A DNA stretch of 4,550 bases from a virus (taxonomy: Duplodnaviria; Heunggongvirae; Uroviricota; Caudoviricetes). The first letter of the stretch is position 1, and each line of letters opens with the position of its first letter. The stretch is from the IMG/VR virus record IMGVR_UViG_2698536372_000011; one strand, given 5' to 3'. The position numbers were made by a program. This document shows positions 3,001 to 4,550 of this stretch, piece by piece.

Positions 3001-4550
3001 GCTATATCCCAGAAATAAGCCTTGTGAGTAATCATCTCTGTTTTCATGTTTATTGCCATAAATATCATTAAGTATTGGTTGAAACTTCCCTGCATCATCA
3101 TTTGCTAATGATAATGCAAGGCTGTTCGCGATAGCTGAACACGTGGTAAATGACAGAGCAATAAAGACGCCAGCGATGACACTTTTTTTCATATGTTATT
3201 GTCTTCCTTTTTTTTGAATGGTGCGCGTATTTTACATACATGAGTTTGTAATACAAGGTGCGTAATCAATATGATGTTTTATAATTGCGTGAGACAATTG
3301 ATTTATTCGTTTTTTATTGCGGTTTTTATTATCTTTTAATGTAACGGTGTTTTTATTAAGTGTGTTTGCGTGGTGTTTTATGTTTTTTATAATTTTTATT
3401 TTATTAAATTTAAAAGCATTAGTAATGGCTATTCTATATAGCAATATAAGAACTGTTACAAAAAAAGGGGGGGCAATTACAGGTAGTTATGGATGATGAG
3501 TGAAACAGATATTGGAGAACCGGGGAATGAATGATGTCTGAGTCTTATATATCAGAACTCCTTCGCTGTCGCTGGGGGCTCCTGTGCTTATGTCGTTTCC
3601 CCGATTCGGTTTTGAACGATTACCGAATGTTGAAGAATTATGCCAAAATATAGAAAGGATTTACTGCATGAATACCCAATATTTACAGTATGTTCGTGAG
3701 CAACTTATGGCAGCTACTGCTGACTTGAACGGAGCAACGAAAGGCCAGCTCGAAGCCTGGCAGGAGCATGCACAATTTGATACTGGTACATACAAACGAA
3801 AGAAGCCGCGCATTCTGGATGTGGTAACTGGCAAGATGATTACGCTGGATAATACGCCGACTTCCGGTAAGCAGTCGTACGCAAAAGGTTCATCCATTGC
3901 TTTGGTCAGCCCGGTTGAATTCTCAACCTCTTCATGGCGCCGCGCGGTTTTGTCTCTCGATGAACATCAGAAAGCATGGTTGCTTTGGTGTTACAGCGAA
4001 AGCGTTCGATGGGGGCATCAGGTCACCATAACGCAATGGGCATGGAGCGAGTTTAAAGATTTGTTAAGTAACAGAAAAATTGCAGGTAAGACACTGGATC
4101 GCCTGAAGACGTTAATCTGGCTGGCTGCACAGGATGTGAAGAGCGAACTTGCAGGGCGTGAGGCCTATGAATACCAGACACTGGCATCATTGGTGGGAGT
4201 GACAACAAAAAACTGGTCCGAGACATTTACTGAACGCTGGGTTGCAATGAAGCACATTTTTCTACAGCTTGATAGTGATGCTTTATTGCTTGTGACGAGA
4301 ACACGTTCAAAACAAAAGGCAGCATTTTTACAGCAAAATATTGCAAAACTGGATTAAAAGCCATATACTTCATGCAAATTTGGTATGTTGTAAAAAATGT
4401 ATAAACCCGCTGCCGAGTGGGTTTTTTTTATGCCCTGAGTTGTACTTGTACGGTAAACATGCTGGCTGCTATGTAATAGAGTTTTTTTAGCCTGTAACCT
4501 CTTGACGGCATTGAATTGCTTTTGTTATGAGTTGTAAGCCAATGTTATCA

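Follow-up and report, generated by a model that had tools for sequence, protein, structure and literature searches.

A Q82-family late-gene antiterminator, identical to the phage 434 Q protein, at the Q position of a Caudoviricetes genome fragment

Introduction

Late-gene antiterminators of the Q type have been divided into three families, those of phage 21 (Q21, PF06530), phage lambda (lambda Q, PF03589) and phage 82 (Q82, PF06323) (Yin et al. 2022, PMC9388147). Antitermination by phage 82 Q has been demonstrated in vitro, where it depended on the Q-binding element (QBE) and on a paused transcription complex and was stimulated by NusA (PMC4914094), and retention of Q and NusA, shielding of the RNA and engagement of the flap tip have been described for the same protein (PMC4914094, PMC12360218). 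Here, a gene of this type is described from the IMG/VR virus record IMGVR_UViG_2698536372_000011 (Duplodnaviria; Heunggongvirae; Uroviricota; Caudoviricetes), the stretch of 4,550 nucleotides (nt) which is referred to below as the window. The gene, at positions 3668-4357, occupies the place of Q, and is compared with the Q modules of phages 82, 434, lambda and 21.

At the late promoter PR' of phage 82, the QBE is located between the -35 and -10 hexamers (PMC4914094). The leader transcribed from this promoter contains a -10-like pause element with an extended -10 motif, then GCC at +15 to +17 and an AT-rich stretch, and transcription pauses at +25 with a terminal U (PMC5001585).

Results

Family identity and occurrence of the Q gene

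The gene at 3668-4357 encodes, with a high degree of confidence, a late-gene antiterminator of the Q82 family that is identical to phage 434 Q. In the Pfam scan the product matched PF06323 (Phage_antiter_Q) with an E-value of 1.7e-91 and a score of 306.3 bits (cutoff 25), aligning to positions 1-216 of the 220 in the profile, and in the PHROG search it matched phrog_304 ("anti-termination protein Q-like") with an E-value of 2.2e-108. Since PF06323 is equivalent to the Q82 family (PMC9388147), the match settles the family, which the preliminary description of this DNA, made by reading the sequence alone, had called uncertain. At the protein level, all 229 residues were identical to those of phage 434 Q (UMO75331.1, OL657226.1), which is itself labelled "Q82-like" in the phage 434 record, and 203 of the 229 (89%, ungapped, E-value 1e-153) to those of phage 82 Q (CAA63332.1, X92588.1). 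The DNA between 3400 and 4550 was 99.8% identical to phage 434. While family membership and identity to known Q proteins are direct results of these searches, DNA binding and activity are expected of the protein from its homology.

Other Q families gave no comparable signal. PF06323 was the only Pfam family returned for the gene, PF03589 being unmatched and PF06530 giving no match at E-values up to 0.01, and no similarity was found between the protein and full-length lambda Q (BLASTP E-value 3.9; hhalign probability 0.2%). The 229-residue protein contains a single cysteine, and three are present in the longest form of the reading frame, so that no Cys4 pattern occurs. The preliminary description was thus right in reporting neither similarity to the lambda Q remnant nor a Cys4 pattern, and its proposal that a replacement Q from outside the lambda family serves as late antiterminator agrees with the PF06323 match and with the homology to phage 434 and phage 82 Q; confident homology to any non-antiterminator family was not found in the family search. 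No NCBIfam model matched the protein, which is uninformative because the Pfam and PHROG matches are strong.

The gene is widespread. At 99% identity or more it was present in 618 of 5,426 complete Escherichia coli genomes, among them strains of serotypes O157:H7, O55:H7, O145:H28 and O26:H11, and a search of 5.8 billion proteins returned 2,681 relatives, with PF06323 in all 120 that were listed. The preliminary description had considered that the protein might be unannotated, but RefSeq holds it at the same coordinates as WP_001097238.1 ("bacteriophage antitermination protein Q"). The Q gene and its module are therefore already known and annotated, and nothing in them is new. The features of the window are collected in Table 1.

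Table 1. Features of the Q module and its surroundings in the window, in order of position.
Feature	Position	Strand	Basis
Lambda-type Q remnant, 29 codons, running out of homology to a stop codon	2018..2107	+	BLASTP, DNA alignment, annotation
lpxR, lipid A deacylase, 319 amino acids	2233..3192	-	Pfam LpxR, E-value 6.8e-40
ylcG-family gene, 40 amino acids	3531..3653	+	RefSeq "YlcG family protein"; phrog_2705, E-value 2e-12
In-frame upstream extension from GTG, probably untranslated as part of Q	3584..3667	+	Pfam start, homologue lengths, phage 82
Ribosome-binding site GAAAGGA	3653..3659	+	Read from the sequence; 8 nt 5' of ATG 3668
Q gene, phage 82 family, late-gene transcription antiterminator (likely extent)	3668..4357	+	PF06323, phrog_304, phage 434/82 identity, RefSeq coordinates
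-35 hexamer TTGCAA of PR'	4341..4346	+	Promoter scan; within the 3' end of the Q coding sequence
Promoter spacer, expected QBE location, overlapping the Q stop codon	4347..4363	+	PMC4914094; alignment of relatives
-10 hexamer TATACT of PR'	4364..4369	+	Promoter scan, alignment of relatives
Inferred transcription start, +1 = A	4376	+	7 nt 3' of the -10 hexamer; register from the GCC of relatives
Putative sigma-70-dependent pause element, extended -10-like TGGTATGTT, +6 to +14	4381..4389	+	PMC5001585; TGnTAT conserved
Predicted pause, +25 (T/U), would-be Q loading point	4400	+	Inferred from the register in PMC5001585
Intrinsic terminator, 9-bp stem, 4-nt loop, T8, +28 to +54	4403..4429	+	Terminator scan
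First gene 3' of the terminator, 247-amino-acid putative membrane protein, first codons only	4542..4550	+	WP_001302581.1, CPT_434_68

Late promoter, pause element and terminator

The promoter scan identified a sigma-70 promoter, TTGCAA-17-TATACT, at 4341-4369, across the Q stop codon (4355-4357), and it is followed by an intrinsic terminator that the preliminary description had also placed at 4403-4429. This terminator was recovered by the terminator scan and by folding of the leader RNA (-15.3 kcal/mol, z -3.4), and it is annotated in the phage 434 record too.

For comparison of the cis elements, this region of the window was aligned with its counterparts in five distinct phages of the Q82 family, whose hosts are E. 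coli, Enterobacter and Klebsiella, and the +1 register was fixed by placing the GCC of these relatives at +15 to +17, its published position in 82 PR' (PMC5001585). The phage 82 record ends at the Q stop codon, and the leader of phage 82 is consequently represented by its close relatives and by the published description. The -35 hexamer was fully conserved (100% identity, all six positions invariant in the five relatives), and the spacer with the candidate QBE was 76-88% identical, with 9 of its 17 positions invariant. Identities were 67-83% in the -10 hexamer, 55-91% between this hexamer and the pause element, and 78% in the pause element, where TGnTAT was kept in all relatives. Further downstream the identity fell to 33-58% at +15 to +26, and to 20-39% after position 4402, although TGTA at +23 to +26 was common to the window and the E. 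coli relatives. Conservation from the -35 hexamer to the pause element, with the drop after 4402, indicates that Q and its site of action form one conserved unit. A mosaic joint lies at about 4390-4404, a different module beginning right after the pause element. In its pause element, +25 register and QBE location, the predicted layout of the window fits the published 82 PR'.

Several observations were made alongside. The terminator begins only 3 nt past the predicted pause site, nearer than in the aligned relatives. On the opposite strand, TTGCAATATTTTGC at 4333-4346 fits the CII consensus TTGCN6TTGC and overlaps the -35 hexamer of PR', and in the phage 434 record this minus-strand motif is labelled a CII site for the antisense promoter paQ. 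As 0.45 matches to the consensus would be expected by chance and one was found, a CII/paQ site has no statistical support from the sequence alone. The sole Rfam match of the search, to the small RNA STnc240 at 4364-4433, was below threshold (28 bits, with a gathering score of 55). This small RNA belongs to the Salmonella core genome, where it lies between yeeY and yoeI (PMC8825220) at a locus unrelated to prophages, and the match was rejected as chance likeness due to an A-run and a terminator. No tRNA was found in the tRNA scan of the window.

Proposed mode of action

The steps proposed here are taken from the phage 82 Q literature, and are transferred to the window on the basis of 89% protein identity and matching cis elements. 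RNA polymerase holoenzyme would start at PR' (-35 at 4341-4346, -10 at 4364-4369, +1 at about 4376), and sigma-70 kept after promoter escape would read the -10-like element (+6 to +14) and hold the complex at about +25. Q, thought to be dimeric, would then bind the QBE between the -35 and -10 hexamers and contact the beta flap-tip helix of the paused complex, with NusA assisting the engagement when the nascent RNA is short. Q and NusA would subsequently travel with the elongating polymerase, shielding about 10 more nt of the emerging RNA, and such shielding would suppress the action of terminator hairpins, whereby the polymerase would resist pausing, the terminator at +28 to +54, and terminators encountered later. 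In this way the late operon would be transcribed, comprising the genes for the membrane protein, a DUF3927 protein, an esterase, holin, endolysin, Rz, terminase and structural proteins, and in the absence of Q the expected product is only a leader RNA of about 50-54 nt. We infer that antitermination by the Q protein of the window is QBE-dependent and NusA-stimulated.

Certain points weigh against this account. Searches of the PDB by sequence and by family profile returned no relative of the Q protein, Q21 and AlpA chains included, and the mechanism after loading is structurally unestablished for any Q82-family protein (PMC9388147). Whether a closed "nozzle" like that of Q21 and lambda Q exists in Q82 is an open question, and the loading of 82 Q on complexes with long RNA (PMC9388147) argues against it. 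At +15 to +17 (4390-4392), the window and phage 434 have GTA, whereas the five other aligned relatives have GCC, as does phage 82. Because mutation of the GCC shortens the 82 pause 2- to 5-fold (PMC5001585), the GTA leader may pause more briefly than that of phage 82, and the pausing kinetics may differ. Lastly, the gene may be idle in hosts with a degraded prophage, as in E. coli 97-3250, where the prophage contains IS600 and a frameshifted esterase gene.

This last point extends to the possibility that Q is an intact but idle passenger in a decaying prophage, its late operon never induced, without any regulatory role in the host of the window. The window ends 9 nt into the membrane protein gene (ATG 4542). 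As read from phage 434 and the identical prophages of E. coli 97-3250 and H19, Q is followed by genes for a 247-amino-acid membrane protein, a DUF3927 protein, a SASA/NanS-type esterase, a class II holin, an endolysin, Rz, terminase and head proteins, and lysis and terminase genes were present in phage 434 and in the matching E. coli prophages, in line with the preliminary expectation that lysis genes follow beyond 4550. In the 97-3250 prophage, which carries this exact module (positions 3868-5024 of the locus compared), IS600 replaces the immunity and replication-initiation genes, and pseudogenes are present; 97-3250 and H19 each have a frameshifted esterase gene. The H19 prophage, on the other hand, retains repressor, cII, O and P genes intact, and its lysis and terminase genes are complete; the Q protein is identical to that of a viable laboratory phage, 434, and no disruptive mutation was found in the Q gene or its cis elements. 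An idle passenger is therefore unlikely, and would moreover concern activity in one host and not the identity of the gene.

Start codon of the Q gene

The longest possible frame on the plus strand is a 257-codon open reading frame (ORF) from GTG at 3584 to 4357, which the preliminary description had taken as the complete gene. The ORF is real, but its start is likely to be 84 nt further downstream, at ATG 3668, from which 229 amino acids and a stop codon are encoded. The PF06323 profile begins at the MNT start, its match opening at residue 32 of the 257-amino-acid form, and MNTQYLQY is the common N-terminus of phage 82 Q, phage 434 Q and the RefSeq coding sequence. The length of 229 residues was found in every annotated coding sequence examined and in nearly all of the 120 listed homologues, the few exceptions being partial or of 230 residues. 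ATG 3668 is preceded by GAAAGGA, and a ribosome-binding site is annotated at the equivalent position in the phage 434 record, whereas GTG 3584 has no good ribosome-binding site. In phage 82 this GTG, as well as the ATG codon two codons further on, is replaced, and the 84-nt extension overlaps ylcG (3531-3653) in a different frame. Taken together, these features point to ATG 3668 as the real start, and GTG 3584 was rejected.

It is thus very improbable that the real protein is the 257-residue form, with a 28-residue N-terminal extension that alters its properties relative to phage 82 Q. The frame is indeed open from 3584, and in phage 82 the frame 5' of the ATG is likewise open, with similar residues; this upstream likeness, however, follows from the nucleotide identity of about 88% over a region that codes for ylcG/orf45 in another frame.

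Predicted structure

The AlphaFold2 model of the Q protein, computed with 35 family members, had a mean predicted local distance difference test (pLDDT) score of 60, with a helical core at about residues 88-215 (pLDDT 70-90) and a poorly defined N-terminal third. Foldseek ranked AlpA first (E-value 0.24-0.37), and among viral predicted structures the only clear match was to the protein's own family, leaving no clear support across families. The ranking hints, weakly, that the Q families share a core fold, a point that concerns the families as a whole and leaves the assignment to Q82 unchanged.

Low model confidence in the 87 N-terminal residues, together with the lack of a match to any NCBIfam model or, by sequence, to any solved structure, is all that could be cited for taking the gene that lies between the late promoter and the lpxR moron to encode a different DNA-binding regulator or an unknown protein, a reading of negligible probability that is effectively refuted by the homology, namely by the full-length identity of 89% to a Q protein with antitermination shown in vitro and by the Pfam and PHROG matches, as well as by the apparently cognate promoter, pause element and terminator directly 3' of the gene.

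Upstream genes and module exchange

Upstream of the Q82-type gene, the window retains the 5' end of a lambda-type Q gene, which the preliminary description had recognised correctly. Within the first 25 residues of lambda Q, 22 were identical (BLASTP E-value 3e-13), about the first 24 codons being lambda-like, and the DNA ceases to align with lambda at about 2090. Phage 434 carries this remnant too, and it is annotated as a Q fragment or pseudogene (in RefSeq as a pseudogene); it is what module replacement left behind. Between the remnant and the new Q gene, lpxR is inserted in opposite orientation with a GC content of 0.32-0.43, and is adjoined by an AT-rich stretch of about 340 bp (3193-3530; GC content about 0.28, range 0.28-0.33) that must hold the lpxR promoter. 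The lpxR gene is a typical moron, known in enterohaemorrhagic E. coli and in phage 434. Elsewhere upstream of Q, the Pfam scan identified ninF, a KilAC antirepressor gene, ybcO, rusA and ninH. With the lysis and morphogenesis genes following in phage 434 and identical prophages, Q thus has the place expected of its family, where the nin/early-right region ends and immediately 5' of the late operon.

The exchange of this module is also on record. In phage 434B, a laboratory derivative of 434, the Q82-type module has been swapped for a different Q together with an nmpC porin gene interrupted by IS5, an arrangement that matches prophage DLP12. According to notes in both phage records the crossover between 434 and 434B lies inside ylcG, which means that the joint is recombinationally active. 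The layout of phage 434 and the exchange in 434B show that the reading of the gene as a replacement Q was right, and this had already been documented in public records.

Two further observations concern the borders of the module and of the window. Phage 2B8 has a different Q of 192 amino acids, yet it is 90% identical to the window over 4404-4550, a stretch comprising the terminator and the beginning of the gene after it. At the left end, the majority of the E. coli matches listed at 100% identity (O26-type and other Shiga toxin-producing strains) begin only at position 82, and the three that extend over all of 1-4550 are each split into two pieces over a span of about 5.06-5.08 kb, which places the left end of the window (1-81) at another mosaic joint of the nin region or at an insertion or deletion.

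Significance of the Q82-type allele

Beyond correct annotation the finding is of little importance. Knowing that the allele is of the Q82 type, and not of the lambda, 21 or 933W type, tells which promoter and pause site it can use, and such an allele should not cross-activate late or toxin operons under the control of other Q families. In the matching genomes that were examined, the interval from Q to the lysis genes contains no stx genes, so the allele has no direct bearing on toxin output there. The locus is a clean example of lambdoid modular exchange, because Q and its cis-acting site travel together as one unit.

Comparison with known Q modules

Of the systems compared, Q of phage 21 and AlpA of Pseudomonas (Q21 family, PF06530) share no sequence similarity with the Q protein of the window, and Q21 acts without NusA, whereas 82 Q is stimulated by it (PMC12360218). 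Lambda Q has the same role and genome position as the gene described here, with a pause at +16/17 as opposed to the predicted +25. A zinc-binding Cys motif is present in lambda Q, in contrast to the single Cys of the window protein.

Phage 82 Q, the founding member of the Q82 family, is much closer: it too has 229 amino acids, differs by 26 substitutions, and is likewise encoded after rusA and a small ORF resembling ylcG. The predicted PR' design is shared as well, in that the end of Q contains the -35 hexamer, the pause element is of the extended -10-like kind and the register is +25, but the terminator and the downstream genes are different, the homology to relatives ending at about 4390. 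The closest system is phage 434, in which the order of the module is the same (5' fragment of lambda Q, lpxR on the opposite strand, ylcG, Q, terminator and membrane protein gene). The two differ further upstream, phage 434 having ninG and ninI in its nin region where the window has the KilAC antirepressor gene, ybcO, rusA and ninH, whereas between their Q modules there is no difference.
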